Assembly (NCBI GenBank): GCA_025839675.1
Contig: CP104013.1
Coordinates: forward strand, 1,140,001-1,172,000
Direction of reading: 5' to 3'
DNA from: Candidatus Lokiarchaeum ossiferum
GTDB taxonomy: Archaea; Asgardarchaeota; Lokiarchaeia; Sigyniarchaeales; Promethearchaeaceae
Length of the DNA: 32,000 nt
Shown: positions 5,424 to 27,361 of the stretch, in pieces
Position numbering within the stretch: position 1 is the stretch's first letter
How the letters are laid out: every line of letters starts with the position of its first letter
Translations under genes and position numbers: made by a program
The notes under the pieces: generated by a model
What the model saw: only the letters and a program-made list of their open reading frames with translations
Told to the model about the DNA's origin: nothing
The model's database searches: none

Positions 5424-5505
5424 GGATACATTAGACAGTTTTTTTCACAATTCTTGTGGAATTTTAAATAGAAGATTTAAAAATCCTTAGATCATCTTCT
5501 AAGAT

Positions 5506-6543: not shown

Positions 6544-6617
6544 AATTATAGGCTAGGATAAATTTCGTTGCCACATTTTAGGAAAAATTTTTATTTTTTG
6601 TAATTTTCTCACAAATC

Positions 6618-7574: not shown

Positions 7575-7626
7575 ATTTAATCACTTTTTGCTTTTTCTTC
7601 TCCTTCTTCTTCACTTTCAAACTAAC

Positions 7627-7633
7627 TTTAAAA
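7627..7633 (+). promoter_or_regulatory. TATA-like box (TTTAAAA) about 30 nt upstream of the AOR-family start codon
   Basis: The sequence ctTTTAAAAgg ends 31 nt before the ATG at 7664. The spacing fits an archaeal promoter giving a very short leader. AT-rich background makes chance matches common. Confidence 0.3.
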
Positions 7634-7663
7634 GGTTATTTCAACCTAATTACTATTAGGGAA

Positions 7664-9394: not shown

Positions 9395-9395
9395 A

Positions 9396-10187: not shown

Positions 10188-10205
10188 TGAAATCTATTTT
10201 CCCAT

Positions 10206-10859
10206 ATGGTTCATAAAGGAACAATAGGATCTTTTTTTTTACTTCGGTTTTCTTCTAATATAATAGGATATCTTATCCAAAGACTTAAAATGAACGAAAT
10301 TTATCTCCCTCTAAAAAAATCCGACAGAAAATCTGACGATTCTCAAGAAATTGGTTATTCGTTGATTGCGACTGGTATATTTATTTTCTTGGTAAGTTGG
10401 AAATGGTTTAAATTGTTGATTTTAGGACTTATTATCTTTGGAATAATTAAAACAATTCAAAAATTGATTATAAGCAAGAATTATCGTAAAAATTGTCCTC
10501 AGAATGAACAAAAATCTTATGTCACTGAAGTTTTCATTGAAAGATTCAAATCTCAACAAACTGCTAAAAAGGATAAAATGGGTGATCCAGTATCGAACAA
10601 TAATTTGGATAATTTTGAGATTCAAAAATCCCCATCTTCGAGTATTGAAGTGATTACATGTAATCATTGTGGTATCACACTAATTTCAGAATTAAATTCC
10701 CAATATATGCAACATGGATATATCTATTGTTATAGTTGTGGGATGAAGATTCAGAGCTGCCAATCTTGTGGACTTAACCTTGAATTTGATATGAAATGGA
10801 TTTTAATTTCCACCCAATTTGTATACTGTTGTTATTGTGGGTCCAAAAATCAGTTGTAA
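10206..10859 (+). CDS. Membrane protein with C-terminal tandem zinc-ribbon-like CxxC pairs, function unknown
   Basis: 217-aa ORF with two hydrophobic helices (aa about 50-85). Four CxxC pairs occur in the C-terminal 60 aa (CNHCG, CYSCG, CQSCG, CCYCG). The true start may be the internal Met at 10290. Confidence 0.5.
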   Translation: MVHKGTIGSFFLLRFSSNIIGYLIQRLKMNEIYLPLKKSDRKSDDSQEIGYSLIATGIFIFLVSWKWFKLLILGLIIFGIIKTIQKLIISKNYRKNCPQNEQKSYVTEVFIERFKSQQTAKKDKMGDPVSNNNLDNFEIQKSPSSSIEVITCNHCGITLISELNSQYMQHGYIYCYSCGMKIQSCQSCGLNLEFDMKWILISTQFVYCCYCGSKNQL

Positions 10860-10862
10860 CCA

Positions 10863-10878
10863 TTTTTTTTCTATTTTT
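10863..10878 (+). terminator. Oligo-T tracts (T8, T5) right after the zinc-ribbon gene in a convergent intergenic region
   Basis: T8 at 10863-10870 and T5 at 10874-10878, starting 4 nt after the stop at 10859. Confidence 0.4.
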
Positions 10879-11005
10879 CCAAATTTGTTCCATAAACCTT
10901 CCTTACTCGTTAAATTCTACTCTACAATTGGTAAGTATATTATAATTTTAAGAAATAAGAAGAGAAAGAGAAAAAATAGATCATTTGGAAAAAAGAAGGG
11001 AAAAA

Positions 11006-12736
11006 CTATTTTCTATTCTTCTGAATAATTAGAAGAATAGTTGTGTTTAACACACTCGCTATGAAAACGAAATTCAGGTCCCCTATACCAATAGAACCGC
11101 CTCTTGATGGAGAACCGACATTATACATATATAATATTTTTCCAATGATTTCATCTTCATGGGTGATCTGAACTTCAATTTCTCCAGTTGAACCAGTTGC
11201 AGCTTGAATATACCATTGTAATGTAACACTTGAATCTGGAGCCATATTAGAAAGTGTTTGAGAACCAGTACCATTTACCAATGAAATATAATCATTTTCA
11301 ACAAGATTAATATCAAGCTCAATGTCATTCGCTTCATTGTATTTGTTATCCAAAGTTAATTCCAACAGAATTGGTTGATTTGGCGTAATCCAGAGATATT
11401 TATAGGCTTCTTCTTGCTGAATTCCAATATTCTCTTCACTACCAGATAATAACGTTGAAACATCAAAATGTGTTCCGAAACTACCATTTCGAGATTCCAC
11501 ATATTCCATGGTAGTAGCCACCGTGGAATACGCATGTTTAATATGATATAGAATGGTTGGCTCATCTGTAAGAGGATTAATTGCAATTCGAGGAGACAAT
11601 ACAGAATAGGGTTGATTTGTCACCCGTTCATCCATCCAGTGTCCAGATTTATTAGTGGAGTACATAATATCCGTTGTATAATAGTGCGAAAATTCGGTTT
11701 GAGGATAACCAACGAATACAATATGAACATCTCCTTCAGAATCAACTGCTATGGAAGGATAACTTGTGGTAGCAGTCAAAGTATTTATAATGGCAGCATC
11801 TTCTTTGGAAGGGGTGTTATCAAGGCGCATATATTTGATATATGCTTGATGAACATCTTGCCCGTTTACAGAAGCCGCTTCAGTCTCAATGAATACAACA
11901 TGAAGGTTGTCATTTTCATCACAAATAATTGTTGGTCTTTCAGCATAGTCTTTAGTTGTTTGTACGGTAGTAAGTCTAATGAGATCCGAAAAGTAAGGTT
12001 CCTCAACATTAGGATTAAATGTTTGATAAAATATATCACGCACTGCTATCGATCCTATCGCCGTATTATTCCAAGATCCTTCAAAAACAATATGAACTAA
12101 CCCATTTGAATCAACTGCTATTGAGGGATTTTGTTCAAAACGGGTTATGGAATTATTTGTTTGATGTTGTTCATGGTGAGTGCTATTAATATAAGTAATT
12201 CCACCTTCATAACTACTAGATGATGATTCTAGCCAATAATAGACAAAATGTACTGCATTATCAGGGCCAATTGCCATCCGGGGTACAAAAGATTTCAATT
12301 GACCTCCACCCATACTTGTTTCAGTCCAAGAATTACCAGAATTATTGATATGAAAGGCACCACCACCATCTGCCCGATAGCTTACTTGACTATCACCTTC
12401 AAGATCAATTAAAATTTGAGGATTCATCGCTCCATAAGACGGATCAGCAATAGTTTCAGGCGAACTCCAACTTCCAGTTGCATTAGTAATAAATAACAAT
12501 TTATCAGAATATTCTTCGGGATCTAAATATACGACTTGCATCGTCCCATCAGGTAAAAAAGCGAATTCAGCATTTCTTCCAAGACCAATTTGAGAAACAT
12601 TAGGTGCAATCCACTTAATATCGGATATTTCAAGACTAGATGTACTCAAAGATGCTTGAACATTTGTAATTGTTCCAATCATCGAGAAAAAGACGCAAAA
12701 CACAAATAATCTACGTCTAAATGTTTGTTTGTTCAT
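11006..12736 (-). CDS. Secreted, C-terminally anchored repeat protein, probably a beta-propeller (BNR/sialidase-like fold), function unknown
   Basis: 576-aa ORF with a signal-like N-terminus (RRRLFVFCVFFSMIGTITNVQA) and a C-terminal TM plus basic tail (FVFIASVLNTTILLIIQKNRK). A strand motif recurs every 50-70 aa (VHFVYYW, VHIVFEG, LHVVFIE, VHIVFVG). About 10 N-x-S/T sequons. Confidence 0.7.
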   Translation of the reverse strand: MNKQTFRRRLFVFCVFFSMIGTITNVQASLSTSSLEISDIKWIAPNVSQIGLGRNAEFAFLPDGTMQVVYLDPEEYSDKLLFITNATGSWSSPETIADPSYGAMNPQILIDLEGDSQVSYRADGGGAFHINNSGNSWTETSMGGGQLKSFVPRMAIGPDNAVHFVYYWLESSSSSYEGGITYINSTHHEQHQTNNSITRFEQNPSIAVDSNGLVHIVFEGSWNNTAIGSIAVRDIFYQTFNPNVEEPYFSDLIRLTTVQTTKDYAERPTIICDENDNLHVVFIETEAASVNGQDVHQAYIKYMRLDNTPSKEDAAIINTLTATTSYPSIAVDSEGDVHIVFVGYPQTEFSHYYTTDIMYSTNKSGHWMDERVTNQPYSVLSPRIAINPLTDEPTILYHIKHAYSTVATTMEYVESRNGSFGTHFDVSTLLSGSEENIGIQQEEAYKYLWITPNQPILLELTLDNKYNEANDIELDINLVENDYISLVNGTGSQTLSNMAPDSSVTLQWYIQAATGSTGEIEVQITHEDEIIGKILYMYNVGSPSRGGSIGIGDLNFVFIASVLNTTILLIIQKNRK

Positions 12737-12896
12737 AAGTTATCCCGTTATTTGTAAAGATATGATATATTTAGAATTTCAACTTAAAAATTTCATGGAG
12801 TTTTTATACAGATTTGGTAAAAATTGGAAACCACAAGGTCATTGTTAAACGAAAAAGGAAAATCTAAATGATTTTCTAAACAACTTAAATTAATCA

Positions 12897-13916
12897 ATGA
12901 AAGATTACGCCATCATTTATAATCCCACTGCAGCCGCGGGAAAAAAAAAGAAACAATTTGACTATGTTATAAAAACCCTCGAAAATCTAAAAATCTCATT
13001 TAAACTATTAAAAACAGAATATTTTGCTCATGCAATCACCCTTGCAGAAGAATGTGCGAAAGATGGTTACCGAATTGTCGGATGGGGTGGCGATGGAACT
13101 TGTAATGAAGTTCTTAATGGAGCGATAAAATCAAAAACAAATGCACTTTTGGGATTTATTCCCATGGGAACGGGCATGGACATTCCCGGAGCGGTCGGAT
13201 ATCGTCCAGATAACCTTAAAAGAGCATGTGAAATTATTGCCAAAGCACATACTGGCAAATTGGATGTTGGAATCGCGACAAATGCGCAAAATGAAAAAAG
13301 ATATTTTTTAGGAATAGGTAGCCAAGGATTTGATGCAGAAGTAACAAAGCGCACAAATGAAGGTAATAAAAACCTTCCTGGTACGTGGAATTATATCGCA
13401 TCGGTTGTAAAAACAGTTTTCGGATTTAAAAAACACAAAATACGGATCATTCACGACAACGGAATCTATCAAAGCACATGCAATCTTGTTGCTGTCGGAA
13501 ATGGCCCCACTTACGGAGGTTGGATGTACATGTGCCCCAGAGCACGGTTGGATGATGGCCTATTCCACATTTCCATCATTGAAATGGGACGATTTGAATT
13601 ATTATATAATTTTAACACAATGTACTCACGTACGCTCCACCCCCACAAACATTTAACAGACTTAATCAGCAAAAAGATTCGTATTGAGATGGTAGAATTG
13701 AATGATGAACCATATATAGCTCAAGTTGATGGAGAAATCATTGGAAATTTGCCTATTGAATATAGTTTTCTTCCAGGACAATATGAATTTATCAAACCCG
13801 AACAAAATGAAGCAGAACAGTGGTTTCAGGAAAAACATGGAACAAAATTCGCAAAACATCTCTCCAAGCTCCAACGAGAAAAATCAGATTACTATACTAA
13901 TTCAAAATTTGATTGA
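12897..13916 (+). CDS. Diacylglycerol kinase catalytic-domain family lipid kinase (YegS/BmrU-like)
   Basis: 339-aa ORF with an N-terminal NP.AG nucleotide-binding start, the GGDGT motif (GWGGDGTCNEV), the G.GMD loop and the DGE motif near the C-terminal part (AQVDGE). Confidence 0.85.
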   Translation: MKDYAIIYNPTAAAGKKKKQFDYVIKTLENLKISFKLLKTEYFAHAITLAEECAKDGYRIVGWGGDGTCNEVLNGAIKSKTNALLGFIPMGTGMDIPGAVGYRPDNLKRACEIIAKAHTGKLDVGIATNAQNEKRYFLGIGSQGFDAEVTKRTNEGNKNLPGTWNYIASVVKTVFGFKKHKIRIIHDNGIYQSTCNLVAVGNGPTYGGWMYMCPRARLDDGLFHISIIEMGRFELLYNFNTMYSRTLHPHKHLTDLISKKIRIEMVELNDEPYIAQVDGEIIGNLPIEYSFLPGQYEFIKPEQNEAEQWFQEKHGTKFAKHLSKLQREKSDYYTNSKFD

Positions 13917-13950
13917 AAAATTCTCTTTTCTTTAGGAGATTCTGAATAAA

Positions 13951-14343
13951 ATGAAACAGATAAAACAAGCGGGACAATCCTATCCTTTAATCGAAAAGAA
14001 ATCAAAATTTATTGCTTCTATTGCTCCAGTTGCAACAGAAAGTGAAGCAAAAGCATTCATCAAAAAAATTTCTGAGCAACATTATAAAGCGAACCACAAT
14101 TGTTTCGCGTACCGAATTGGGATAGATAAAGAACTTCTAGTTAATGAAAGTGATGAAGGAGAACCCTCAGGAACTGCCGGACAACCGATGATGTACGTCT
14201 TGGAAAAACAAGAAATTACAAATACCGTCGTGGTTGTTACTCGCTATTTTGGCGGAATCAAGTTGGGAAAAGGGGGATTGGTGCGAAGTTATTCCAAAGC
14301 AGTTAGTCAAATCATCAAAGCCATTGGACTTATCACAATCTAA
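13951..14343 (+). CDS. IMPACT/YigZ (UPF0029) family protein, N-terminal domain only
   Basis: 130-aa ORF matching the family pattern: KSKFIASIAPV, KANHNCFAYR, DEGEPSGTAGQPM, VVVVTRYFGGIKLGKGGLVRSY. Confidence 0.8.
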   Translation: MKQIKQAGQSYPLIEKKSKFIASIAPVATESEAKAFIKKISEQHYKANHNCFAYRIGIDKELLVNESDEGEPSGTAGQPMMYVLEKQEITNTVVVVTRYFGGIKLGKGGLVRSYSKAVSQIIKAIGLITI

Positions 14344-14370
14344 GGACTATTTTTCTTAGAATAAGGAGAT

Positions 14371-14871
14371 CTACTTTTCTTCTATATAGGGCATCTTTAT
14401 AATTATTTTCTCGCAATGCGTTTGATTTATCAACCGACGGAAAGAATTTTGAGGTATTTGCAGCGTTTCAGTATTAATATTGGGATGGCAGCAAATTTCA
14501 GATGCATTCCAAATAGATTCATCCACAAAAAATATGGTTTTATGTTCATTATCATTGATTAACCCTAAAGGGGATACTGAGCCTGGTGTTAAACCCAAAA
14601 TGGACAAAAGATCTTCAGCTTCTGCAAAACGAATTTTTGGAGCCTGTACAATTTTACGGAATTGTTTTAAATCTAATCGTTTTTTGCTGGGAATAGTAAT
14701 TAAATAATAGCGCCCATTTTTCTTGTTTTTTAGGAAAAGATTCTTGCAATGAACCCCAGGAATGTGACCACAATGAATTTCTGCTTCAGGTACAGTAAAT
14801 ACGGCTTGATGCTTAAATAGAAGATACTTAATATTATTCAAATTTAACCATGTTTCAAGAGAAGGGTGCAT
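14371..14871 (-). CDS. YbaK/ProX-like aminoacyl-tRNA editing (deacylase) domain protein
   Basis: 166-aa ORF. Its pattern is typical of prolyl-tRNA-synthetase-associated editing domains: H.AVFTV.EA, CKNLFLKNKK...YYL, K.LDLK, LGLTPGSVSPLG. Confidence 0.7.
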   Translation of the reverse strand: MHPSLETWLNLNNIKYLLFKHQAVFTVPEAEIHCGHIPGVHCKNLFLKNKKNGRYYLITIPSKKRLDLKQFRKIVQAPKIRFAEAEDLLSILGLTPGSVSPLGLINDNEHKTIFFVDESIWNASEICCHPNINTETLQIPQNSFRRLINQTHCEKIIIKMPYIEEK

Positions 14872-17023: not shown

Positions 17024-17030
17024 AGGAGAA

Positions 17031-17195
17031 ATGAAAACAATGCCAATCGAAATAAATTTCAATAAATACTTACCCTCAGGAGCAACTTTTTATGCCTATT
17101 ATTCAATTTTAAAAGACTTTGACGTCCCCAATAAACCCATTGACCCAATAGGTTCAAAATCAACCACTTTACTTGACTTTGGAAATTATATTTAA
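17031..17195 (+). CDS. Hypothetical small protein (54 aa), below the ORF-track length cut-off
   Basis: Hand translation gives MKTMPIEINFNKYLPSGATFYAYYSILKDFDVPNKPIDPIGSKSTTLLDFGNYI, ending in TAA at 17193-17195. AAAGGAG lies at 17022-17028, just before the ATG. T7 tracts follow the stop. Confidence 0.3.
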   Translation: MKTMPIEINFNKYLPSGATFYAYYSILKDFDVPNKPIDPIGSKSTTLLDFGNYI

Positions 17196-17199
17196 TCCG

Positions 17200-17222
17200 T
17201 TTTTTTATTGTGTAATTTTTTT
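17200..17222 (+). terminator. Two T7 tracts after the small-ORF pair; candidate terminator
   Basis: T7 at 17200-17206 and T7 at 17216-17222, starting 5 nt after the stop at 17195. Confidence 0.4.
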
Positions 17223-17578
17223 CTGCTTTTAACACTAATTTGATGAACGATCTCTTTTTTCGAGAATTAATGAACCAATAAAAGTTCTGGAAATTGTTCC
17301 AAAATACTTATAGCAAGAATTTACTGTAAAAGCAATTCTTACAGTTACCGTATGCTAAACTCAATTGAAGCTTTAAAATAAACAGTTTGTTTTGCAAATT
17401 TGAAGTATTTCCTAAGATTTTTTTTTGATAAATGATGAAATTGATTATGGATTTAAGTTGTAGAATTCTTCTAATTAACTTCTGAAACCTATGCTAACTA
17501 ATAGGAGTTTATTTACTAGCAATACTTAAGATAATAGACAACATAGTAAAAAATGATTAGTAATAGGAAAGAAAGAAA

Positions 17579-20500
17579 TTGACAGAAAAAGTCGAAGAAA
17601 AAAAACCAAAATTTGGAAAACAGATTTTTACAGGTTATGTGGCGTCAGAATGTGATCGAAATTTATTTCTCTCAATTTCTCGAAAATTTGAAACAAATTG
17701 GATGAAACCAGTAAGAAAGTTAAAGAAAGGAGATCGTCCAATTAGATCCCCTTCTTTTTTAAAAAGACTTGGACATAAATATGAAAAGGATGTGTATGAT
17801 TTATTATATTCAAATCCAATTTCTTCCACTTCCTTTCGTTTGAGTAAAGAACGACCTGGAAATGAATCCCTTACGAAAGAAATATTTGAGGGTATATATG
17901 ATAGAATCCAAGATGGCCAATATACCGATAAAATTCTTGCTGAATTTGAATATCAACCCCCTGCAACATTTTTTGAAGATCTTCTCTCTCTTTCACCCGA
18001 TTTTCGAGGAATTCCTTTGGATTATGGTAATGTAAGACCGGACATTTTGATAATAGGCAACTCGTTGACTAAAACACAGAATTCTATTATGGAGATTCTT
18101 CCTAATGGGGAAATTAAGGAAATTTTAAACAAGGATTTAGAAACTCGCTTTGGAATAAATATATTTGATGTTAAAAATATTAATAAAGATAAAATCGGAA
18201 AAAAACAATTCATTGAAATTTCCTATTATGCATGGACCTTATCTTATTATCTTTCATCTATTAATATGAACCACAAATTTTTTGTTCAAATTGAAAAGAA
18301 TGGCATATTTCCTCAATATGATAATCTTGAAGATCTTAAATTCAATAATCTTACAGATTTCTATCTCGCTATGATTCCAATAAAGTGGAATGAAGCAAAT
18401 AGAATATTTACAAATGTGGCAAAAAAAATTAGGGAACTTTGGAAAAGTGCACCGAATACTATCGAAAATATCAATGTAAACATTCAACCTACTTGTGGGC
18501 AATGTAGTTATTTAAAAGACTGTATCTATACTTTAGGAAAAACGGAGATGTCTGAAGCGAAAGATTGGTCTTTAAAATTAATACCTTATACATCTAACTC
18601 CATAGCTCAGCAATTGGAAAAATTAGGTTTCGAAACCATCGGAGATGTTGGGAAGAACTTAAATAAAATAATAATTGGAGACATTCCAGAGCCCATCTAT
18701 CCAGAATTGCCGCAACTAGCCCTAAAGACAGCTTCACTACTTAAAAATGACATAGTAATTCCAAAAGGAGGATCTATATATAATACCAGCATCCCCAAGT
18801 ATTCTCCAATTAGCATTGTCTTTGTAGCCGAATCAGATCCAAGTAATGAACGGTTATTTGCATTTGGGATTCAATCAACAATGTCTATCCATCCGAAAGC
18901 ACCATATTGTTTGGCTTTTGACAAGTGGTGGGAAATTTGGAAGGGGGCAATAGCCTCAGATGAACCTTCTGAGTTGATTCGGAAAAAAATTGAAGATGAA
19001 CTATATCAAGAAATGAGTATTGAAGAGATCGACCAAATTAAGTCGTTGCTAACAAATTTATCAAATTTTAAAATTTATATTCCGGGAGATACTATCAAAA
19101 AGAAAAAAATAAATCATGCAAAAATTACATTCCAATTTTCCTATGTTACTGAAGGATTAGAGCCCGATGACGAATTCAAATTAATTTTAGAAGCATTCCC
19201 TCGAATTTATGCCCTTTTAACATTATGTAACTATATCGAAAATCACGTAGTCATTAAAGGAATCAAAGAAGGAACATTTTATGGCCCAGATTCTGCAATT
19301 TTTTACTGGTCCAAAGAGCAATTAAATAATATTGAGCAAATGATGCAGCGTAATTTAGACAAGATAATTAAGAACAAAAAATTGAAGGCTTATTTAGCAG
19401 AATTAGTTTCTTGGTTTGCACCAAGTGATTCTGAGGTAACTCACCCATATCAGCATAAAAAAATGTTCAACTTACAATCTTTTGCAGAAACTTCCATGGG
19501 ATTTCCGAAAATCATAAACTATACGTGGCATGAAATAGCAAAAGATCTTTCTGGAACGATCAGTAATTCCCTATATTGGATACCTCATTTTAATTACATG
19601 GATTTTACAGCATGGCACGAATTTTTAATCAAAAAGGAAGATGATTTGCCAAAAGCATTAGAATTAAAAGAAATATTGCATAGGCAGATAAAACATAAAT
19701 TGCGGGTCCTAAATTGGTTACGAATGAATTTTCAGTTTAAATCTAATAAAAATATCTCTAATAATTCGCGTCCCATAAAAATGGATTCACTTAAATCAAT
19801 AAAATTGGATAGAAATTATCATCAAATTGCTTATGTATGGTATCTATTTTCGAAGTTAGAAGGTACTATGGATGAATTGGAGGCGGAGCATTTCAGAACC
19901 ATCTATCCAGAATTTAGTATTGGAAAATTGGCCGCAGCTCGTGTTTCAAACTTACGAGCTCTTGAAACGGGGGATAAAAAAATTATTCATCGCTTTGAAC
20001 TTCGAAATCTATCTTCCAATATGAAAATAAAAGAAGGAGATCAAGTTTTCTTAATTCCTGAGGAAAAACGAGATTTGAAGGTGGGACCATGGATCCGCGT
20101 CTGGATTATAACCATCGAACGAATGCAATGGAACACCAAAATCTCAGGGTATGAAGTAGAAGCAAAAAAGAAACCGAAAAATTTAATCGAAATTTACAAA
20201 GGGGAAGTCGAATTTCCACAAGAAAATCCTCAATGGTATTTGTATCCCTATGCTTTTGATGCATGGTCAACAAAGTTATTTAATCAAAAAGGAGAAGGGC
20301 TTTTACAAAATAATCATTTTGGAGATTCTTGGTTGGGAAAGCGATTATCTTTTTTCTGGGATATTCGTGCCAATCCAGAATTATTTTGGCCGAAATCTTG
20401 GCAATTTAGCACCCCAGAAGTATATTACTACGACCCATCTCAGCTCCCCGATGAAATTACAAAAGAATCTGAAAGTGAACAAAATATTCTCTACTCGGAC

Positions 20501-22117
20501 ATATATCCTTCCCCCGATCCATCTCAAAGTGATGCGATAGATTTCGCGTTAAGAAATGTACTTTATGCGATAAAAGGACCTCCAGGTACCGGCAAATCTC
20601 AAACTATAGCAGCGTTAATTGACGAATATATTTTACGATGTCAAAAGAAAGGACAAAAATCAGTAAAAATTTTAGTTACTGCATTTTCTTATTCTGCTAT
20701 TTTTGTGTTGATTGATAAAATCCAAAAAAGTCGTAATAGCAAGCAAAAACCTACTCTTTCTGCCCAGTTACAAAAAATATTCATCCGTTCAGGTTCCCGT
20801 GATCCTATTGCCGATGAAAAGGGATGCCGGCACATTGATGATTTAGTTCGCGAAAATGGGGCATGGAAATGGAATGGTCTTTCACGAACAGTCACAAAAA
20901 AGAAAAAACTTGAAGAAGTTTTGGAAGAGAATTATATTATTTTTGCCAACGCACACCAATTATATAGATTAAGGGAGCGAGTTAAGGATTCATTTGAATT
21001 TGATCTAATAGTAGTGGATGAAGCCAGTCAATTACCCACAGATCAATTCATGGCAAGCTTACAATATATCCATAAAGAAACATTTCATCTTCAACCAAAA
21101 TCAATGGAATCTGTTTCTCAAGCATTTGGCACAGAAATTGAGAATTTTGAATCAGTTCAAAAGTTAAAAAACATAAACCCAATCAACATAAATAATTTAA
21201 CTAAAGTCGTTATAGTCGGTGATTATAATCAATTACCTCCAGTTCAGCGTATTAATCCACCAAAGAATCTTGAAAAAGTATTAGATAGTTTATTTAGTTA
21301 TTATGTCAGGTATCACAAAATTAAATCGTCTCAATTAAAGGTAAATTATCGATCCCATGAAGAAATTGTTGCCTTTACATCTCAATTGGGGATTTATGAG
21401 GATTTAACCGCATTTTCTTTGAATGCAAAACGAAAAATTACCGGAAACGTAAATCAGATTAAAATTCCTTGGATAAAAACAATTTTAGATCCTGAAGTTA
21501 TTGCTGGAGCAATCATTCACACCACTCAATTTGAAATTGCCATAAGTGCTATTGAGGCATCGATTGTATCTCAGATTGTGATACAATATTTTTTCATGAA
21601 AGAAATTCGGGATGAAAATGAAGAGAGAAAATTCTGGCAAGAAGCAATTGGGGTTGTGGCCCCCCATAATGCTCAAGGACGCCTTATCATCTTAAAAATA
21701 TTTCAAGCCTTGACCGATCCAAAGGATACTTTAACTTTTCTTTCAAACACTGAACTCATGGATTTACTGAAAAGTAGCATTTATTCTGTGGAAAAATTCC
21801 AAGGATCGGATAGAGAATTTATTTTAGCCACCTTTGGACTCTCAGATAAGGATCAATTACGAGCTGAAGATGAGTTTATTTATGATTTAAATCGGTTTAA
21901 TGTGCTTACATCCCGAGCTAAGTCGAAGATAATCGTCTTGTGCAGTCAAGAATTCTTAGATTATATCCCAGATGATAGGGAAATTATGGATCAAGCCGCT
22001 CAAACCCGAAATTATGCTTTAGACTTCTGTAACCATGAAACAAGTATGAAAGTCGAAATCGAAAAATCCACCGGAAAATTTGAAATGGAAACAATTCTAT
22101 TCCGTTGGAAGGGTTAG
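17579..22117 (+). CDS. Fusion of an Fe-S PD-(D/E)XK nuclease (Cas4/AddB/Dna2-type) with an SF1B (Upf1/Dna2-like) helicase, 1512 aa
   Basis: TTG start. Nuclease domain: C25 in the CDRNLFL context plus C306-x2-C309-x5-C315 (nt 17651, 18494-18523), with D155 (RPDIL), D197-V-K199 (IFDVK) and Q210 (QFIEISYY). Helicase domain: Walker A GPPGTGKS aa 1000-1007 (nt 20576-20599), DEASQ aa 1147-1151, GDYNQLPPV aa 1214-1222, NYRSH, FQGSDRE and NVLTSRAKSK. Confidence 0.9.
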   Translation: MTEKVEEKKPKFGKQIFTGYVASECDRNLFLSISRKFETNWMKPVRKLKKGDRPIRSPSFLKRLGHKYEKDVYDLLYSNPISSTSFRLSKERPGNESLTKEIFEGIYDRIQDGQYTDKILAEFEYQPPATFFEDLLSLSPDFRGIPLDYGNVRPDILIIGNSLTKTQNSIMEILPNGEIKEILNKDLETRFGINIFDVKNINKDKIGKKQFIEISYYAWTLSYYLSSINMNHKFFVQIEKNGIFPQYDNLEDLKFNNLTDFYLAMIPIKWNEANRIFTNVAKKIRELWKSAPNTIENINVNIQPTCGQCSYLKDCIYTLGKTEMSEAKDWSLKLIPYTSNSIAQQLEKLGFETIGDVGKNLNKIIIGDIPEPIYPELPQLALKTASLLKNDIVIPKGGSIYNTSIPKYSPISIVFVAESDPSNERLFAFGIQSTMSIHPKAPYCLAFDKWWEIWKGAIASDEPSELIRKKIEDELYQEMSIEEIDQIKSLLTNLSNFKIYIPGDTIKKKKINHAKITFQFSYVTEGLEPDDEFKLILEAFPRIYALLTLCNYIENHVVIKGIKEGTFYGPDSAIFYWSKEQLNNIEQMMQRNLDKIIKNKKLKAYLAELVSWFAPSDSEVTHPYQHKKMFNLQSFAETSMGFPKIINYTWHEIAKDLSGTISNSLYWIPHFNYMDFTAWHEFLIKKEDDLPKALELKEILHRQIKHKLRVLNWLRMNFQFKSNKNISNNSRPIKMDSLKSIKLDRNYHQIAYVWYLFSKLEGTMDELEAEHFRTIYPEFSIGKLAAARVSNLRALETGDKKIIHRFELRNLSSNMKIKEGDQVFLIPEEKRDLKVGPWIRVWIITIERMQWNTKISGYEVEAKKKPKNLIEIYKGEVEFPQENPQWYLYPYAFDAWSTKLFNQKGEGLLQNNHFGDSWLGKRLSFFWDIRANPELFWPKSWQFSTPEVYYYDPSQLPDEITKESESEQNILYSDIYPSPDPSQSDAIDFALRNVLYAIKGPPGTGKSQTIAALIDEYILRCQKKGQKSVKILVTAFSYSAIFVLIDKIQKSRNSKQKPTLSAQLQKIFIRSGSRDPIADEKGCRHIDDLVRENGAWKWNGLSRTVTKKKKLEEVLEENYIIFANAHQLYRLRERVKDSFEFDLIVVDEASQLPTDQFMASLQYIHKETFHLQPKSMESVSQAFGTEIENFESVQKLKNINPININNLTKVVIVGDYNQLPPVQRINPPKNLEKVLDSLFSYYVRYHKIKSSQLKVNYRSHEEIVAFTSQLGIYEDLTAFSLNAKRKITGNVNQIKIPWIKTILDPEVIAGAIIHTTQFEIAISAIEASIVSQIVIQYFFMKEIRDENEERKFWQEAIGVVAPHNAQGRLIILKIFQALTDPKDTLTFLSNTELMDLLKSSIYSVEKFQGSDREFILATFGLSDKDQLRAEDEFIYDLNRFNVLTSRAKSKIIVLCSQEFLDYIPDDREIMDQAAQTRNYALDFCNHETSMKVEIEKSTGKFEMETILFRWKG

Positions 22118-22120
22118 CGA

Positions 22121-22128
22121 TTTTAAAA
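22121..22128 (+). promoter_or_regulatory. TATA-like box (TTTTAAAA) in the 58-nt helicase-mre11 spacer
   Basis: The sequence gaTTTTAAAAgg sits about 48 nt before the mre11 ATG. It suggests mre11-rad50 may have an internal promoter in addition to read-through. Weak evidence in AT-rich DNA. Confidence 0.25.
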
Positions 22129-22175
22129 GGAAGAAGTGTTAATAAAGAATAGAAAAAAAAAACAATCTGATAAAA

Positions 22176-23693
22176 ATGGTTAAATTTCTTCATATTGCCG
22201 ATACTCACTTGGGCTATAAACAATATAATCTTCAAACTCGATATAATGATTTCATCCAAGCATTTCAATTTATCTTAAATAAAGCAATTGACGAAAGGGT
22301 GGATTTTGTATTAATTGCTGGCGATATGTTTAATGATAGTAAAGTGAATCCGGAAACTCTAAGTAAAGTATATCAAATCCTATCTCAATATCAGGACACA
22401 ACTAAATTGAAATTGAAGAAAGATATTCCCATTTTGGCAATTGAAGGGAACCATGATAGTCCAATTTTTTCATCTCAATCGTGGATGAAATTTTTGGCAG
22501 ATTTAGGATTGATTCACCTCCTTTCAGGAGATTATAACACGACATCAAAAACAGTTACTTTCACACCCTATTCACCAGAAACAAATCGGGGAGGATTCAT
22601 AGAACTAGAAGGGGTTAGAATTTATGGGCTGCCTTATTTTGGAAGTAATACACCTTTATTATTTCCAGCGATCTACGAAGCAATCCAAGAATCAGATGAT
22701 TATTTTACTATTTTGATGATGCATTTTGGTATTGCTGGAAGAGATAAAAAAAAAGCGGGAATTAATTACACCCCAGAATTGGAAAAACTCCATAAAAAGG
22801 TGAATTATCTCGCTTTGGGTCATTTTCATACGATGTACACTTTTCCAATGGAAGATGAATGGATTTATAACCCAGGTAGCAGTGAAATAAATGATATCAA
22901 AGAATATGACGTAAATAGGGATCATGGAGCATTTTTAATTGAAATAAATGCAAGTGATACAAAGAATTTTGAAGTTACTAAAATTCTATGTGAAAATGGG
23001 GACTCCCAATCAAAAAATCTAATCCCAAATCGCACTTTTTATTCTCCCACTCCAATGAATGTTGGAGCTTCAAAAGCAACTTCCTTTAAAGAGACATTAC
23101 AAGAAGTCATTAAAAATCTAAAGGCTTTTGGATTTAAATCACGGAAAAATGAAGATAATATAAACAAATCGGATAATTTAAACTATCCAATCTTAGTACT
23201 TACCTTATTTGGAACGGTACCTTATTCGCGGTTAGAATTCAATACTCGTCAATTACGGGAACACATTTTAGAGGAACTCGATATTTTGGATGCACGCATT
23301 TACAGCACTTCAATTCAGTCCGAATTAGATGGAATAATCATTGAAGGTGATGAAGAACTTTCAATTGATGAAATTGAGAAAAAAGTATTCGAATTTATGA
23401 TTGATAGTAATAAAAATTATACTCCTGCAAGAACTGATTTATTAAACTTAATTTTCGATATCAAAGCACAATTGCAAGAAATCGATGCAGATCCTAAATT
23501 TCTAAAGGATCATATAAAACAATGGTATTCTTCCCATATTTCAGAATTGAAGGGCAAAGAAGGAAAGAAAATTAAAGAAAAAAAAATTCAAAATACTGAA
23601 AATGATGCAAATTTAGACGATATGGATGATCTATTGGGCGATTTAACGGAATATGAAGATTCTGGAGAAGAAGAATTTGATTTTGAATTATAG
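22176..23693 (+). CDS. mre11: DNA double-strand break repair nuclease Mre11
   Basis: 505-aa ORF carrying all the calcineurin-like phosphoesterase motifs: HIADTHLG (D9, H11), IAGDMFN (D50), EGNHD (N92, H93), MMHFG and LGHFH. The N-terminal 110 aa are almost collinear with Pyrococcus-type Mre11 as I recall it. The C-terminal extension ends in an acidic tail. Confidence 0.9.
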   Translation: MVKFLHIADTHLGYKQYNLQTRYNDFIQAFQFILNKAIDERVDFVLIAGDMFNDSKVNPETLSKVYQILSQYQDTTKLKLKKDIPILAIEGNHDSPIFSSQSWMKFLADLGLIHLLSGDYNTTSKTVTFTPYSPETNRGGFIELEGVRIYGLPYFGSNTPLLFPAIYEAIQESDDYFTILMMHFGIAGRDKKKAGINYTPELEKLHKKVNYLALGHFHTMYTFPMEDEWIYNPGSSEINDIKEYDVNRDHGAFLIEINASDTKNFEVTKILCENGDSQSKNLIPNRTFYSPTPMNVGASKATSFKETLQEVIKNLKAFGFKSRKNEDNINKSDNLNYPILVLTLFGTVPYSRLEFNTRQLREHILEELDILDARIYSTSIQSELDGIIIEGDEELSIDEIEKKVFEFMIDSNKNYTPARTDLLNLIFDIKAQLQEIDADPKFLKDHIKQWYSSHISELKGKEGKKIKEKKIQNTENDANLDDMDDLLGDLTEYEDSGEEEFDFEL

Positions 23694-23707
23694 GAGGAAT
23701 TTTACAT

Positions 23708-26416
23708 ATGATAATTGAAAAAATCCAATTACGGAATATTACTACTCATAAAGATACAACAATTTCATTTCAAAATGGTCTTAATGTCTTAGCGGGAGCA
23801 AATGGAACAGGTAAATCAACAGTTCTAAAAATGATTGGGCATAATTTATTTGATTTTCTCCCAGCAAAAAGTCAAAATGTCTATGTCAGGGATGCACCCG
23901 ATGCTGGAAAGTCTGGGCTAGTAAAAATATGGGTTCGAGGAGTAGATGATCATCCCTTTTTAATTGAAAGATCCGTTGCCCGGAAACCGAATACTATCAA
24001 GGTAACCGATCTTTTAACAAGTACCATTATTGATAAAATCCATAATAAAGCCAATTTGCAAAAATGGTTAAAAATACAAACTGGAATAAACCAAGAGCAT
24101 GATCTCTCAAAATTATTTCAAAATGCCATTGGAGTTGAGCAAGGGACATTTACTGAACCATTTTTACGACGTCCAAGTGATAGGAAAGATTTTTTTAACC
24201 CTTTGCTTAATGTAGAAATTTATAATAAAATCTACAAAAAATCGGCTAGTATTGTCAAAGAATTTAATGAAGAGATTAATGAGTATAAATTAGAAATTAA
24301 AGGGTATAAAACTCAATTAGAACGAAAAGTGGTTTTAGAAAAGAGTCTAAATAGGTTACAAGCTGAAATTCTGGACAATACAACAAAAAAAAAGATCTTA
24401 TCCCAAGAATTTACTAAAATTCAATCAAAGTATCAAAAATCAAAACAAATTAAAGAGCAAATTGAGAAGCTTCAAAGGAATATTTCAGAATTAACTCAAG
24501 AACAAACTAATATCGCTCAGCAAAGTTCAATAATTACATCCCAAAGACAAGAATCAGAAAAAGCGAAAGAAATTTGCCAACAAAACTTATCTCCAGCTCA
24601 AGAATTTATTAAAATTAAAAAAATTGAAGAAGAACTCATTACTAAAAAAGAAAAATTTGATAGATTGATGAAAACTCAACATACCCTTGAGAAAAACTTG
24701 ACAACCATTCAAACTAAAATCGAAGCATTTCAAAAGCAAAAAGAAGAAATCGAAAACTTGAAAGAATCATATCAAAATCTCAAAAAAGATTATGAAACCT
24801 ACCAGAAAAACTCTCTTAGACTAGAACAAATTCAACAATTAAGTACTCAAACACGAATGAAAAGAGACATTTATGAAAAGCAATCAAAAAACATTCTAAC
24901 CACTCAGAAATCCATTGATGATATTAAACAGAAAATTGTCAAAATTCCAGAGTTACGCACTTTAGTAGATCAAATGGAAAAAGTTCAAGAGGAACTTACT
25001 AAAATAGAAAAACAAATTTCTGTTCTGCTAACTCAAAAAAAGGAGTATGAAAAAAACAAGGAAAGCTCTAAAGATGGAAAATGTCCTTTTTTGGGATCCA
25101 AATGTCAAAATATAGAAGGAGAATCCCTAACCACTTATTTTGAAAAACTACTTGCTACCAATTTCCAGGCACTGCAAAAAAGTAATCAACATCGAAAAAC
25201 GCTAATAAGTCAATTCCAGAAATGTAAAGAAGCTCAACAATCATTAGATCGATTAAAACTATTAGAAGCGCAAGTACAACAAAAATTAGAGTTAGTTAAT
25301 CAACTCAAACTTGAAAATGTTGCGATTAAAGTATTTTTAGACGAAAATAGAAATGTGAAGACTGAACTTGACTCTCTTCAAAAGAAACAAATTTCATTAA
25401 AAAGCAAAGCAGAACAATATCAAATAGTTCATAGCAAAATTACAACAGATTTACCCATTTTGAATAAAAAAATATCTGTAATGCGTGAAAACCGGAAACC
25501 TATTGAGGCAAAAATTGCCCCGATTTTAAAATATCTGCAGGAAAATAATTCAATTTCTGAAAAATTAGGGCAAGTTCGAACCACTCTTAAGAAGCTCCTT
25601 CCAAGTTATGAGAAATATCAAACAAATCTTCAACAATCGAGAAAATTACCGGCTATTTTAGAACAACTTGACAATTTAAAACAAAAATCTATTGTGAATC
25701 AAAAAAAATTAAAGCAAATTCAGGTAACCCACCAAAACTTGAATAAACAATTTGATCTCCACGATTTTGACAAACTAGAGCAAAAAAAAGAAAAATTGAA
25801 TAATGAATTGACTATGATCAAGCAAGATATTCTAAATAAAACCCAACAACAGCATGAACTCGAACGAGAATTTCAAGATTTACTGAAAATTGAAAATAAG
25901 CTCTCGGACATCATTAAAGATTTTGAGAATTTGGAAAACGCATTAGCTTTTACTCAAACGATACGCGATTGGTTTAGAGAAGCAGGACCCAAAATAACCG
26001 GGGCTTTACTAAATAATATTAATCGTCTTGCCTCAGAATTGTTTAGGGATCTCATGGGACTTGACGGGGTAAAATTAATCTGGCAAGAAGATTTTGATGT
26101 TTTAGTCATCTCCAGTCAAAATGAACGCGTATTTTCCCAGCTTTCTGGGGGAGAACAAATGGCTGTCGCCCTTGCCATTCGATTAGCCATATTACGAATT
26201 TTAACATCGATTGATTTTGCATTTTTTGACGAACCGACCACGAATTTAGACACGATTAAACGGCAGAATTTGGCCAAATGTATCCAAAATGTGCGCGGTT
26301 TTCGCCAACTATTTGTGATTTCACATGATGATACCTTTGAAGAAAATGCAGATCATGTAATCCGCTTTGAAAAAGATGAGAGTGAAACTACAAAGGTGGA
26401 TTTTTTAAAAGTTTAA
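23708..26416 (+). CDS. rad50: Rad50-type SMC-like ATPase
   Basis: 902-aa ORF. GGAGG at 23693-23697 lies 10 nt before the ATG. Walker A GANGTGKST (aa 30-38), Q-loop VEQG, then about 600 aa of K/E/Q-rich coiled coil with a central Cys pair (C459, C466). The C-terminal part carries signature LSGGEQ, Walker B FAFFDEPT and H-loop VISHD. Confidence 0.9.
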   Translation: MIIEKIQLRNITTHKDTTISFQNGLNVLAGANGTGKSTVLKMIGHNLFDFLPAKSQNVYVRDAPDAGKSGLVKIWVRGVDDHPFLIERSVARKPNTIKVTDLLTSTIIDKIHNKANLQKWLKIQTGINQEHDLSKLFQNAIGVEQGTFTEPFLRRPSDRKDFFNPLLNVEIYNKIYKKSASIVKEFNEEINEYKLEIKGYKTQLERKVVLEKSLNRLQAEILDNTTKKKILSQEFTKIQSKYQKSKQIKEQIEKLQRNISELTQEQTNIAQQSSIITSQRQESEKAKEICQQNLSPAQEFIKIKKIEEELITKKEKFDRLMKTQHTLEKNLTTIQTKIEAFQKQKEEIENLKESYQNLKKDYETYQKNSLRLEQIQQLSTQTRMKRDIYEKQSKNILTTQKSIDDIKQKIVKIPELRTLVDQMEKVQEELTKIEKQISVLLTQKKEYEKNKESSKDGKCPFLGSKCQNIEGESLTTYFEKLLATNFQALQKSNQHRKTLISQFQKCKEAQQSLDRLKLLEAQVQQKLELVNQLKLENVAIKVFLDENRNVKTELDSLQKKQISLKSKAEQYQIVHSKITTDLPILNKKISVMRENRKPIEAKIAPILKYLQENNSISEKLGQVRTTLKKLLPSYEKYQTNLQQSRKLPAILEQLDNLKQKSIVNQKKLKQIQVTHQNLNKQFDLHDFDKLEQKKEKLNNELTMIKQDILNKTQQQHELEREFQDLLKIENKLSDIIKDFENLENALAFTQTIRDWFREAGPKITGALLNNINRLASELFRDLMGLDGVKLIWQEDFDVLVISSQNERVFSQLSGGEQMAVALAIRLAILRILTSIDFAFFDEPTTNLDTIKRQNLAKCIQNVRGFRQLFVISHDDTFEENADHVIRFEKDESETTKVDFLKV

Positions 26417-26440: not shown

Positions 26441-27361
26441 ATGACATCTTTCACAACTCCTACCATATCTGGAGCTTGGAAGCACATGTATAATCCAAAT
26501 CAATCCAAATTTACTCAACGATTCAATTGGATTAACCGAAATCGGTGGTATACGAATGATCACACCTTAGTAAAAACAAGTGATGGAATCTGGCACGGAT
26601 ATGGAATCATCGGGTTTCGCATTTTTAAGCAAGCTTTTGCATGGATTATTGAGCAAAATTTATTTCATATCTCTTCCCCGACCTTATATTCGGATTCGTG
26701 GATTGAACATGATTATGCCCTTGTTGCAAGTCGATCACAAGGAGAAAAATTCCTTTGGGCACCTCATGTGATTAATGTTGAAGATAGATTATATATGTTT
26801 TATTCTGTGGGAAATATTCGACCTTTTGCGAAGTTAGTTGCATCCCATGGAAATATTCATTTAGCCACTTCTACAGATGGAATAAATTGGATCCGTGATG
26901 AACGTAACCCGCAATTTAGTGGCCCCGGTCATGCAAGAGATACAATGCTATTGCAAATTAATGGAGAATACTACATCTATTATACTCAGACGGTGAATGA
27001 TAAGGATAAACATTCGTGCATTGCGGTGAGGAAAAGTAAAGATCTCAAACGGTGGTCCGGTCCAAAAATTGTTCAAATTCAACCTTGGAAACGATGGCAT
27101 TGGGCGGGAAATGCGGAAAGTCCCTTTGTGGTTCAAAAAGGAGAGATATTCTATTTATTTTCTTGTTTAGCCCAAGAATCCTATAATAGAACTGCCGTTT
27201 ATTGGTCTCAAGATCCAGAAAATTTCCCCCTATCAAATCATGTTTGCGATTTACCCACCCATGCATCAGAAATATTGTTTGATGAGAAAGAAGGGTGGTT
27301 TATCACCAATACGGGGTGGGATAAAAAGGGATTATACATTGCTCCACTATTATGGGATTAA
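26441..27361 (+). CDS. Five-bladed beta-propeller glycoside-hydrolase-like protein (GH43/GH32-superfamily-like), cytoplasmic
   Basis: 306-aa ORF with no signal peptide. Propeller-type recurring motifs: WAPHV...LYMFYS, STDGINW, ARDTMLL..NGEYYIYYT, SKDLKRW and AESPFVV.KGEIFYLF. Family assignment is tentative. Confidence 0.5.
   Translation: MTSFTTPTISGAWKHMYNPNQSKFTQRFNWINRNRWYTNDHTLVKTSDGIWHGYGIIGFRIFKQAFAWIIEQNLFHISSPTLYSDSWIEHDYALVASRSQGEKFLWAPHVINVEDRLYMFYSVGNIRPFAKLVASHGNIHLATSTDGINWIRDERNPQFSGPGHARDTMLLQINGEYYIYYTQTVNDKDKHSCIAVRKSKDLKRWSGPKIVQIQPWKRWHWAGNAESPFVVQKGEIFYLFSCLAQESYNRTAVYWSQDPENFPLSNHVCDLPTHASEILFDEKEGWFITNTGWDKKGLYIAPLLWD

Follow-up and report, generated by a model that had tools for sequence, protein, structure and literature searches.

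Mre11-Rad50 recognizes and opens DNA ends, and resection of the 5' strand is the job of HerA-NurA in thermophilic archaea and of Dna2 in eukaryotes. The herA-mre11-rad50-nurA operon is the established paradigm in archaea, and SF1B helicases of the Upf1-like class move 5' to 3' on single-stranded DNA. Here we analyze a 32-kb stretch of Lokiarchaeial DNA (contig CP104013.1, positions 1,140,001 to 1,172,000; referred to below as the window), in which a gene for a putative nuclease-helicase, called HEL here, is followed directly by mre11 and rad50.

Eukaryotes, some archaea and a small number of bacteria are known to have Dna2-like nuclease-helicases with an iron staple (PMC7430649). The iron-staple signature is known from AddB, Dna2 and Cas4; in yeast Dna2 it takes the form CX248CX2CX5C, and a conserved arginine lies two residues past the first cysteine, as C519/R521 (PMC3439918; see also PMC7430649). 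The bacterial Dna2-like protein Bad is a 5'-3' translocase on single-stranded DNA and an endonuclease with an Fe-S cluster (PMC7430649). In mesophilic archaea it is nothing unusual for mre11-rad50 to occur with no herA-nurA, and Haloferax is without both herA and nurA (PMC7776575). A 2025 paper remarked on an apparent relationship of eukaryotic Dna2 to 'some Asgard homologs', and did not address linkage to Mre11-Rad50 (PMC12680538). That remark is the nearest that we found to our subject in the open literature, which in our searches held no description of a nuclease-helicase clustered with archaeal mre11-rad50, of an accompanying loss of herA or nurA, or of the HEL family.

Linkage of HEL to mre11-rad50 and its relation to herA-nurA

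The three genes of the locus, as taken from the open reading frame (ORF) table and from their motifs, are as follows.

17579..22117, + strand: HEL, the nuclease-helicase gene (1512 aa, TTG start)
22176..23693, + strand: mre11 (505 aa, phosphoesterase motifs I-V intact)
23708..26416, + strand: rad50 (902 aa, with Walker A and B, signature, H-loop and a long coiled coil)

All three are intact and lie on the + strand, with spacers of 58 nt between HEL and mre11 and of 14 nt between mre11 and rad50. The ORF table confirmed in this the co-directional arrangement, positions and gaps that had been put forward in an earlier sequence-only reading of the window. That reading also saw a GGAGG within the 14-nt gap, of which GAGG does lie there; the first G, however, belongs to the mre11 stop codon, being its last base (taG GAGG).

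The same reading had proposed a survey of the gene neighborhoods of HEL orthologues, and in such a survey the linkage proved to be strongly conserved and, within Lokiarchaeia, vertically inherited. One genome was taken per species, and 80 loci were returned (cited below by L number). The mre11 and rad50 genes adjoin HEL in 33 of these species-representative loci (tblastn and ORF clustering), all 33 of them of Lokiarchaeial type and with HEL identities down to about 40%, and Mre11 and Rad50 are the sole neighbors of HEL that are conserved across many loci. The spacer between HEL and mre11 measures -4 to 113 nt in 29 other loci (median, about 20 nt); the one between mre11 and rad50 spans -38 to +16 nt. 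This adjacency is not due to chance, as it recurs in 33 genomes with a short median gap. The HEL copies linked to mre11-rad50 form one clade of 32 sequences (93 of 100 bootstraps, neighbor-joining), whose exceptions include two members at contig ends. Pairwise distances among the three proteins are strongly correlated (HEL versus Mre11, r = 0.95; HEL versus Rad50, r = 0.94; Mre11 versus Rad50, r = 0.94), and HEL is the slowest-evolving of them, with a mean p-distance of 0.51 against 0.55 for Mre11 and 0.65 for Rad50. These correlations fit vertical co-inheritance under strong constraint, though any vertically inherited genes would correlate.

The absence of herA and nurA from the window, which the sequence-only reading had also claimed, was borne out by tblastn with Lokiarchaeial queries, which detected no similarity to HerA, NurA or DUF8166 in its 32 kb. 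Related loci are differently composed. In L077 the genes run contiguously as HEL-DUF8166-herA-mre11-rad50-nurA, and in the Promethearchaeum relatives L087 and L088 as HEL-LRR-CitMHS-DUF8166-herA-mre11-rad50-nurA. The order in L090 is herA-mre11-rad50-HEL-nurA, and its HEL protein, 40% identical to that of the window from end to end, belongs to the linked clade; L091 (Sigynarchaeum) shares synteny with L090 and has no HEL gene. A further locus, L086, contains DUF8166-herA-mre11-rad50-nurA, with HEL absent from the surrounding 10 kb. In P. syntrophicum MK-D1 (L007) and in L005 the order is HEL...CitMHS-mre11-rad50, and both, unlike L087, are without DUF8166, herA and nurA. HEL is kept with Mre11-Rad50 in three gene orders, namely HEL-mre11-rad50 (the majority), the L077, L087 and L088 type, and the L090 type, and close relatives differ only in their content of HEL or of DUF8166-herA-nurA (L091 versus L090; L007 and L005 versus L087).

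It had been suggested from the sequence that the helicase occupies the position of herA. This was not so in the loci that keep herA: HEL precedes DUF8166-herA in L077 and L087, and in L090 it has rad50 on one side and nurA on the other. This argues that HEL joined HerA-NurA at the locus and existed beside them until they were lost. The observed states, HerA-NurA only, both together in two orders, HEL only in most lineages, and a decaying nurA, make up the pattern expected from non-orthologous displacement within an operon. The herA and nurA genes have been lost from the locus. As a correction to the sequence-only reading, mre11-rad50 alone is in itself no exception among mesophiles such as Haloferax (PMC7776575).

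Searches at the protein level extended the comparison to larger contigs. A Lokiarchaeial NurA query retrieved 31 proteins, none of them from a megabase-size contig, and the HEL cluster of Candidatus Lokiarchaeum ossiferum is listed on a contig of 6.27 Mb; none of the 120 best HerA matches lies on a contig sized like the L. ossiferum or MK-D1 chromosome. This is indirect evidence that two complete genomes, those of L. ossiferum and MK-D1, are without herA and nurA.

Several other features of these operons were observed. In L005, a Promethearchaeum metagenome-assembled genome (MAG), two short NurA-like fragments (NurA aa 330-366 and 380-403) are found just past rad50, at 13215-13434; from their sequence they are apparently a decaying pseudogene of nurA. 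The genes between HEL and mre11 in Promethearchaeum were considered as candidates for herA or nurA and were ruled out, being a CitMHS transporter and an oxidoreductase. A DUF8166 protein of about 200 aa is encoded directly 5' of herA in L077 (1118-1720), L086 (9385-9999), L087 (9148-9750) and L091 (3715-4326), that is, in all four Lokiarchaeial operons where this position is visible, and judging from this arrangement DUF8166 may be a fifth, undescribed component of the herA-mre11-rad50-nurA operon in Lokiarchaeia.

We propose that HEL resects DNA ends together with Mre11-Rad50, and that it first joined the HerA-NurA system and later took its place, an explanation to which we give even chances.

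Domains of HEL, its family and the Mre11-Rad50 pair

The predicted domains and motifs of HEL are listed below.

17579..18553, + strand: putative iron-staple PD-(D/E)XK nuclease domain of Cas4/Dna2 type (about aa 1-325; from motifs and model)
17645..17662, + strand: first Fe-S ligand motif, SEC25DR27N (from conservation in homologue alignments)
18032..18229, + strand: catalytic motifs VRPD155ILI, IFD197VK199N and KKQ210FIE213ISYY217 (from alignments)
18491..18523, + strand: cysteine cluster C306-x2-C309-x5-C315, TCGQCSYLKDC (invariant in 29 sequences)
18584..19648, + strand: HhH-like segment and conserved alpha/beta domain (about aa 336-690; from high conservation and model)
19646..20503, + strand: long stalk helices and beta-barrel ahead of the motor (about aa 690-975; from secondary structure of the model)
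20504..21988, + strand: Upf1-like SF1B helicase core (Walker A at 20576-20599, DEASQ at 21017-21031, and motifs III, V and VI)

In alignments of 20-29 full-length homologues, E122, R153-P154-D155, D197-x-K199, E213, Y217, C306, C309 and C315 are invariant, and C25-x-R27 is conserved in at least 90% of 29 homologues, its C-x-R arrangement being that of C519/R521 in yeast Dna2 (PMC3439918). The four cysteines are spaced as C25-x280-C306-x2-C309-x5-C315 around a D...(D/E)xK...Q..Y core, and HEL appears in this respect to possess the four-cysteine iron staple of the Dna2 family (C-Xn-C-X2-C-X5-C). The RecB-type PD-(D/E)XK motifs and fold of that family are also indicated, by the motifs themselves and by matches in BFVD, a collection of predicted viral structures. 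AlphaFold models were made of residues 1-974 (pLDDT 77.7, pTM 0.71) and of residues 1-335 (pLDDT 87.9, pTM 0.87), and the order of strands and helices around the nuclease motifs in the model is consistent with a RecB-type core. When the residues 1-335 model was compared with BFVD by Foldseek, the best E-values were 4e-6, 1e-4 and 7e-4, and the named matches were to Cas4/RecB-family (E 7e-3, probability 0.97), PD-(D/E)XK (E 1e-2, probability 0.96), DUF2800 and DUF83 proteins. For the residues 1-974 model, the top fold match in PDB was mouse Dna2 (5eaw_A; E 5.7e-4, probability 0.91), which together with the iron-staple nuclease and the SF1B helicase upholds the Dna2-style domain logic that the sequence-only reading had recognized.

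At the level of sequence profiles, in contrast, residues 1-970 of HEL had no family match in Pfam, NCBIfam, PADLOC, PHROGs or PDB sequences, either at permissive thresholds or with the family profile. Residues 1-700 of eight HEL homologues had no Pfam match even at E<=5, and a profile of residues 1-700 had none among PDB sequences; the N-terminal region gave no profile match to the Dna2 and Cas4 families, which we take to be PF08696 and PF01930 in Pfam. An Fe-S PD-(D/E)XK nuclease at the N-terminus, which the earlier reading had assigned, is well supported by motifs and model fold, but not by profile homology.

Giant-virus proteins were also among the top structural matches of the nuclease domain, with a Faunusvirus protein of 846 aa at rank 1 (E 4e-6) and a Yasminevirus protein of 892 aa at rank 5 (E 8e-3). 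Given their size, these uncharacterized proteins might resemble HEL beyond the nuclease domain as well.

The module at aa 336-690 has invariant E418 and D420 in an 'AESDP' motif and is modeled with pLDDT mostly of 85-95; it had no family match in the library searches, and the one weak fold hint was to poxvirus PolB (E 0.27). Beyond it, the residues 1-974 model matched Upf1, Ighmbp2, Sen1 and Dna2 over about 180-210 columns in Foldseek, and we assign these matches, by inference from the model, to the stalk and barrel segment. The C-terminal region is an Upf1-like SF1B helicase with motifs I-VI, as in the Dna2 family: GPPGTGKS, DEASQ, GDYNQLPP, VEKFQGSD and NVLTSRAK are intact, Pfam recognizes AAA_11 at aa 980-1058 (1.5e-16) and AAA_12 at aa 1236-1457 (4e-19), and NCBIfam the IGHMBP2 family TIGR00376 (4e-26). 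The helicase core matches the PDB sequences of IGHMBP2, DNA2, UPF1 and SEN1. A domain order of nuclease, barrel/stalk, 1A and 2A with no further large module was not found, the aa 336-690 module being extra. The HEL family profile gave 52.5 bits with IGHMBP2, 51.8 with DNA2 and 46.8 with UPF1, values that are nearly equal. The likeness to Dna2 that the sequence-only reading had noted does not establish orthology with eukaryotic Dna2: IGHMBP2, DNA2 and UPF1 score about equally, the nuclease has no Pfam match, and some 350 residues have no counterpart in Dna2.

An identity of HEL with TM0106-like proteins (TIGR03491) was considered and set aside, with no NCBIfam match at E<=0.01 and no match to Pfam RNase_H_2 at E<=5. 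The layout of TM0106-like proteins, presumably a Cas4-like nuclease, an HhH segment and an alpha/beta domain, would resemble that of HEL and serves as a lead only.

Profile searches and intact motifs confirmed the earlier identification of Mre11 and Rad50, as they did that of the SF1B helicase. Mre11 matches Metallophos (3e-16) and the NCBIfam model Mre11_Pyroc (1e-36, at 126.6 bits compared with an equivalog cut-off of 600 bits), and the catalytic motifs expected of an archaeal Mre11 (DxH, GDxxD, GNHD, H and GHxH) are intact. Rad50 aligns end to end with PRK03918 (1e-69; residues 1-890 over 878 profile positions), below the cut-off, and has intact Walker A, LSGGEQ, FFDEPT and ISHD motifs. From these scores, both below the curated equivalog cut-offs, the two proteins are divergent members of their families. 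Window Mre11 is 36-47% identical to Mre11 of other Lokiarchaeial loci and aligns with the Mre11 of herA-nurA operons. Rad50 has an unusual hook, as follows.

25082..25105, + strand: Rad50 hook CPFLGSKC, C-x6-C (aa 459-466; from an alignment of 31 Lokiarchaeial Rad50)

This variant, CP[FI]Lxx.C in place of the canonical CxxC zinc hook, is found in most Lokiarchaeial Rad50 proteins, those of herA-nurA operons included, and the only exceptions are L025, L033 and L072 (CPVC or CPLC). Rad50 proteins from loci with and without herA and nurA can be aligned throughout and have the unusual hook in common, indicating that the window Mre11-Rad50 is a canonical repair pair and not a second, defense-type copy. 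Their sequences support the view that it is the canonical archaeal pair, orthologous to the pairs in herA...nurA operons of relatives.

The HEL family is a small one. A profile of residues 1-700 retrieved 339 proteins at E<=1e-3 from 1.84 billion representative proteins, both counts being of cluster representatives. Most of the whole-profile members listed are 1400-1750 aa long and the shorter ones resemble fragments, from which it appears that the N-terminal module is always fused to the helicase. Full-length homologues have 34-48% identity to HEL; by group, the identities in the scan of one genome per species are 40-48% in Lokiarchaeia/Promethearchaeota, 32-39% in Heimdall- and Kariarchaeia, 29-41% in Myxococcota and 'Deltaproteobacteria', and about 27% in Acidobacteriota. 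A scan of IMG/VR returned no full-length relative of HEL and only generic matches to the helicase domain.

Outside the linked clade, a Lokiarchaeial paralogue clade is its sister (100% bootstrap). One paralogue (L093, HEL copy at 5421-10142) lies in the order methylase, ResIII/RE_endonuc, HEL, an 80-aa gene, a 401-aa Metallophos gene, and genes of 215 and 688 aa; in L092 (HEL copy at 10001-14860) a gene for a DNA methylase and an anti-Pycsar-like one are nearby. The acidobacterial homologues (L071, L073-L075, L078-L080, L082) are flanked by an N6/N4 DNA methylase. These neighborhoods suggest that a defense-type branch exists within the HEL family.

Full-length members from Myxococcota and 'Deltaproteobacteria' (L029, L032, L041, L043-L045, L049, L051, L054, L056, L062), at 29-41% identity, have no conserved neighbors. 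Most of the Myxococcota members form one clade (91% bootstrap) nested among Asgard sequences, a placement that points to inter-domain transfer of HEL between Asgard archaea and Myxococcota. One Lokiarchaeial subclade carries, past rad50, the gene of a second Rad50/SMC-like ATPase, about 840-860 aa long (L021, 17459-19978; L048, 19089-21629; L058, 19107-21698; L059, 19126-21642), and downstream of it are a small protein (130-175 aa) and then an AAA_5 (MoxR-like) ATPase.

As to the surroundings of the trio, the genes flanking it are of housekeeping type, with uppP/BacA, a lipid kinase and an ECF/Cbi-type (CbiM/Q/O-type) transporter; uppP/BacA and the transporter had been named correctly in the sequence-only reading. 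The order of the flanking genes is syntenic with the L. ossiferum locus, where the HEL orthologue is 96% identical, of equal length and in an identical gene order, and identical copies of the window genes were found on Logan assemblies; on this basis the window belongs to a Lokiarchaeum-type Asgard archaeon. HEL uses a TTG start, and no in-frame ATG further downstream would keep the conserved C25. The 555 nt 5' of HEL (17024-17578) are non-coding and very A+T-rich, with a called ORF of 54 aa at their start. The spacer between HEL and mre11 is also A+T-rich:

22118..22175, + strand: spacer of 58 nt between HEL and mre11, with TTTTAAAA and TTAATAAAG elements

By its sequence, the combination of TTTTAAAA and TTAATAAAG may constitute an internal promoter. 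Scans for sigma-70 promoters and intrinsic terminators gave background levels only, and neither model applies to archaea. A GH43-like gene of five-bladed-propeller type begins 24 nt past rad50 (26441-27361, + strand); it is kept at this site in L. ossiferum and in no other locus, and is probably not part of the module. Elsewhere in the window, a 576-aa ORF on the - strand (11006-12736) has a faint BNR_4 match only, and L. ossiferum has a gap of 580 nt instead. L. ossiferum in turn has, relative to the window, an extra MFS transporter between DUF2284 and an ABC ATPase (L085, 20645-22006).

Proposed role in end resection and the alternatives

If HEL works in this pathway, Mre11-Rad50 would recognize and open the break end, and HEL, going by its domain content, would then load onto the 5'-terminated strand. 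Its SF1B motor would feed this strand into the N-terminal iron-sulfur PD-(D/E)XK nuclease, and degradation of the 5' strand would leave a 3' tail for the RadA recombinase. As for its history, the gene orders suggest that HEL was recruited beside an ancestral DUF8166-herA-mre11-rad50-nurA operon in Lokiarchaeia; it would then have coexisted with HerA-NurA, a state still seen in some lineages, until HerA-NurA became dispensable and was repeatedly lost, the lineage of the window included. The gene content, the intact motifs, the conservation of the linkage, the co-inheritance and the loss of herA and nurA at the locus are observations; we infer from them the physical or functional cooperation of HEL with Mre11-Rad50, its polarity, its resection activity and its substitution for HerA-NurA.

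A number of points weigh against this explanation. HEL occurs together with HerA-NurA in at least three lineages, and its function may be distinct from that of HerA-NurA and not redundant with it. In the source genome, the absence of herA and nurA refers to the 32-kb window, and the protein searches for NurA and HerA were word-seeded and could miss divergent copies. One member of the linked clade, L067, is truly without mre11-rad50 within 10 kb; linkage to mre11-rad50 is not seen in the homologues from Heimdallarchaeia, myxobacteria and acidobacteria; and some homologues outside the linked clade stand in settings that resemble restriction-modification loci. Many of the loci are MAG contigs, one linked locus being binned as Bathyarchaeota, and the trees are of neighbor-joining type, from trimmed MAFFT alignments. 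Going by the spacer sequence, mre11 could have its own promoter in the 58 nt that separate it from HEL. Finally, the fold matches of the nuclease domain come from predicted viral structures only: Foldseek of the residues 1-335 model against PDB gave nothing significant, the best match being a deubiquitylase (E 0.13) and AddB standing at rank 40 (E 2.1), and hhalign of the family profile with the Cas4-like ORF199 of the rudivirus SRV failed (probability 0.8%, a spurious match of 48 columns).

It is conceivable, though rather unlikely, that HEL is an accessory partner of Mre11-Rad50 for special substrates such as flaps, reversed forks or blocked ends, in the way that Dna2 acts at forks. Bulk resection would then be left to HerA-NurA or another nuclease, and herA and nurA, where the locus is without them, would have moved or had their loss made up for by other enzymes. 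HEL does share a gene cluster with herA and nurA in L077, L087/L088 and L090, some Lokiarchaeial HerA-NurA operons (L086, L091) have no HEL, and the extra 350-residue module of HhH and alpha/beta parts suggests recognition of substrates beyond simple threading. The mesophile Haloferax, moreover, manages without HerA-NurA and without HEL (PMC7776575). Against an accessory role stand the repeated loss of herA and nurA in separate subclades that retain HEL, the decaying nurA in L005, and the lack of any detectable NurA on the megabase contigs of complete Lokiarchaeial genomes. We consider it very improbable that the adjacency is meaningless and that HEL is an Upf1-like RNA/DNA helicase-nuclease for Okazaki flap removal or RNA surveillance, placed where it is by common descent. 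The linkage has outlasted a divergence at which all other neighbors changed, it has been re-created in three gene orders, including an insertion between rad50 and nurA, and genes that overlap or lie very close together suggest co-expression. In favor of a meaningless adjacency are a helicase core that is as near to the RNA helicases UPF1, IGHMBP2 and SEN1 as to DNA2, Heimdallarchaeial and bacterial homologues with no link to mre11-rad50, and the fact that vertically inherited neighbors also yield high mirror-tree correlations.

The trio might also serve in defense against viruses or plasmids, with an SbcCD-like ATPase-nuclease sensing foreign ends and the nuclease-helicase degrading them as effector. 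The PADLOC models MkoA (7e-29) and DpdJ match the helicase, and LmuB (1e-30) and mad3 match Rad50, but these are generic matches to the helicase (MkoA profile positions 817-1082 of 1112) or to the SMC head and coiled coil (LmuB), and Mre11 has none; for Mokosh, Dpd, Lamassu and Hhe systems we found no full-length match and no partner genes in the window. The sister paralogue clade beside methylase, ResIII/restriction-endonuclease and Metallophos genes (L093) or close to genes of anti-Pycsar-like and DNA methylase type (L092), the methylase-flanked acidobacterial homologues and the patchiness of the family in bacteria can be cited for a defense role. The linked clade, in contrast, is vertically inherited and slowly evolving among housekeeping genes with conserved synteny, the window Mre11-Rad50 is orthologous to the pairs of herA-nurA operons and has its best matches in archaeal double-strand break repair families, and no HEL copies were found on viral contigs in IMG/VR, making defense by the window trio distinctly improbable. 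A core repair role, as supposed in the sequence-only reading, agrees with the housekeeping-like character of the linked clade; the family as a whole is not purely a core one, as methylase or restriction genes adjoin the Lokiarchaeial paralogues and the homologues from Acidobacteria.

Resection by HEL with Mre11-Rad50, if it takes place, would matter in several respects. The HEL locus is a concrete, testable candidate for end resection in archaea without HerA-NurA, of which Haloferax is an example (PMC7776575), and it is found in the archaeal group closest to eukaryotes, including the cultured L. ossiferum and P. syntrophicum. Taken in sequence, the gene orders resemble the natural stages of a non-orthologous displacement in a repair operon, running from HerA-NurA alone through both systems to HEL alone, and one genome of the last kind still has a decaying nurA. 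The family is rare (339 cluster representatives in 1.84 billion proteins), and its distribution over Asgard archaea, Myxococcota and Acidobacteria is unusual. A larger claim would be that Lokiarchaeia preserve a stepwise change from HerA-NurA to a Dna2-type resection coupled to Mre11-Rad50, and that the HEL family or its Asgard relatives may be ancestral to eukaryotic Dna2 and the MRN-Dna2 axis. We regard this as improbable; if true, the link between HEL and eukaryotic Dna2 would bear on the origin of the eukaryotic recombination machinery.

Comparison with known systems

Helicases of defense systems (Mokosh MkoA, Dpd DpdJ, Hhe and ProA) have the Upf1-like AAA_11/AAA_12 core in common with HEL, which itself has a paralogous clade in neighborhoods resembling those of restriction-modification systems. 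The matches to these proteins are confined to the helicase domain, however, and lie far below family cut-offs, and the N-terminal 970 residues of HEL are unrelated to them. Cas4/DUF83 proteins have the motif order C-x-R...hhD...(D/E)xK...Q..Y...CxxCxxxxxC as in HEL, as seen beside ORF199 of Stygiolobus rod-shaped virus (SRV). Compared with rudivirus ORF199 (199 aa) and the phage Cas4/PD-(D/E)XK matches (229-292 aa), the domain in HEL nevertheless has about 100-130 residues more, the HEL profile and the Cas4-like protein fail to align in hhalign, and the HEL locus has no CRISPR context.

Bacterial Dna2-like Bad and the AddAB/AdnAB enzymes combine, as HEL appears to do, iron-staple nuclease domains with SF1 motors. 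HEL differs from them in length and in its middle domains, and its nuclease region has no detectable sequence relationship to theirs; the HEL gene is also linked to mre11-rad50, whereas no linkage to SbcCD or Mre11-Rad50 has been reported for Bad. The likeness to HerA-NurA is one of arrangement, in that a motor and a 5' strand nuclease are encoded beside mre11-rad50, and in L077, L086, L087, L090 and L091 the herA-nurA operon is built round orthologous mre11-rad50 genes. The proteins themselves are of other kinds, HerA being a hexameric ATPase of the FtsK/HerA class and NurA having an RNase-H-like fold, whereas HEL is an unrelated single chain with an SF1B helicase and a predicted PD-(D/E)XK nuclease.

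Eukaryotic Dna2 has, as predicted for HEL, an N-terminal PD-(D/E)XK nuclease with C...CX2CX5C, a barrel and stalk, and a C-terminal Upf1-like SF1B helicase in one polypeptide, and its role downstream of Mre11-Rad50 is the one that we propose for HEL. In contrast to Dna2, the nuclease region of HEL is without a Pfam profile match and its helicase core scores about equally with IGHMBP2, DNA2 and UPF1; HEL is further set apart by its additional conserved module of about 350 residues (aa 336-690) and by the linkage of its gene to mre11-rad50.

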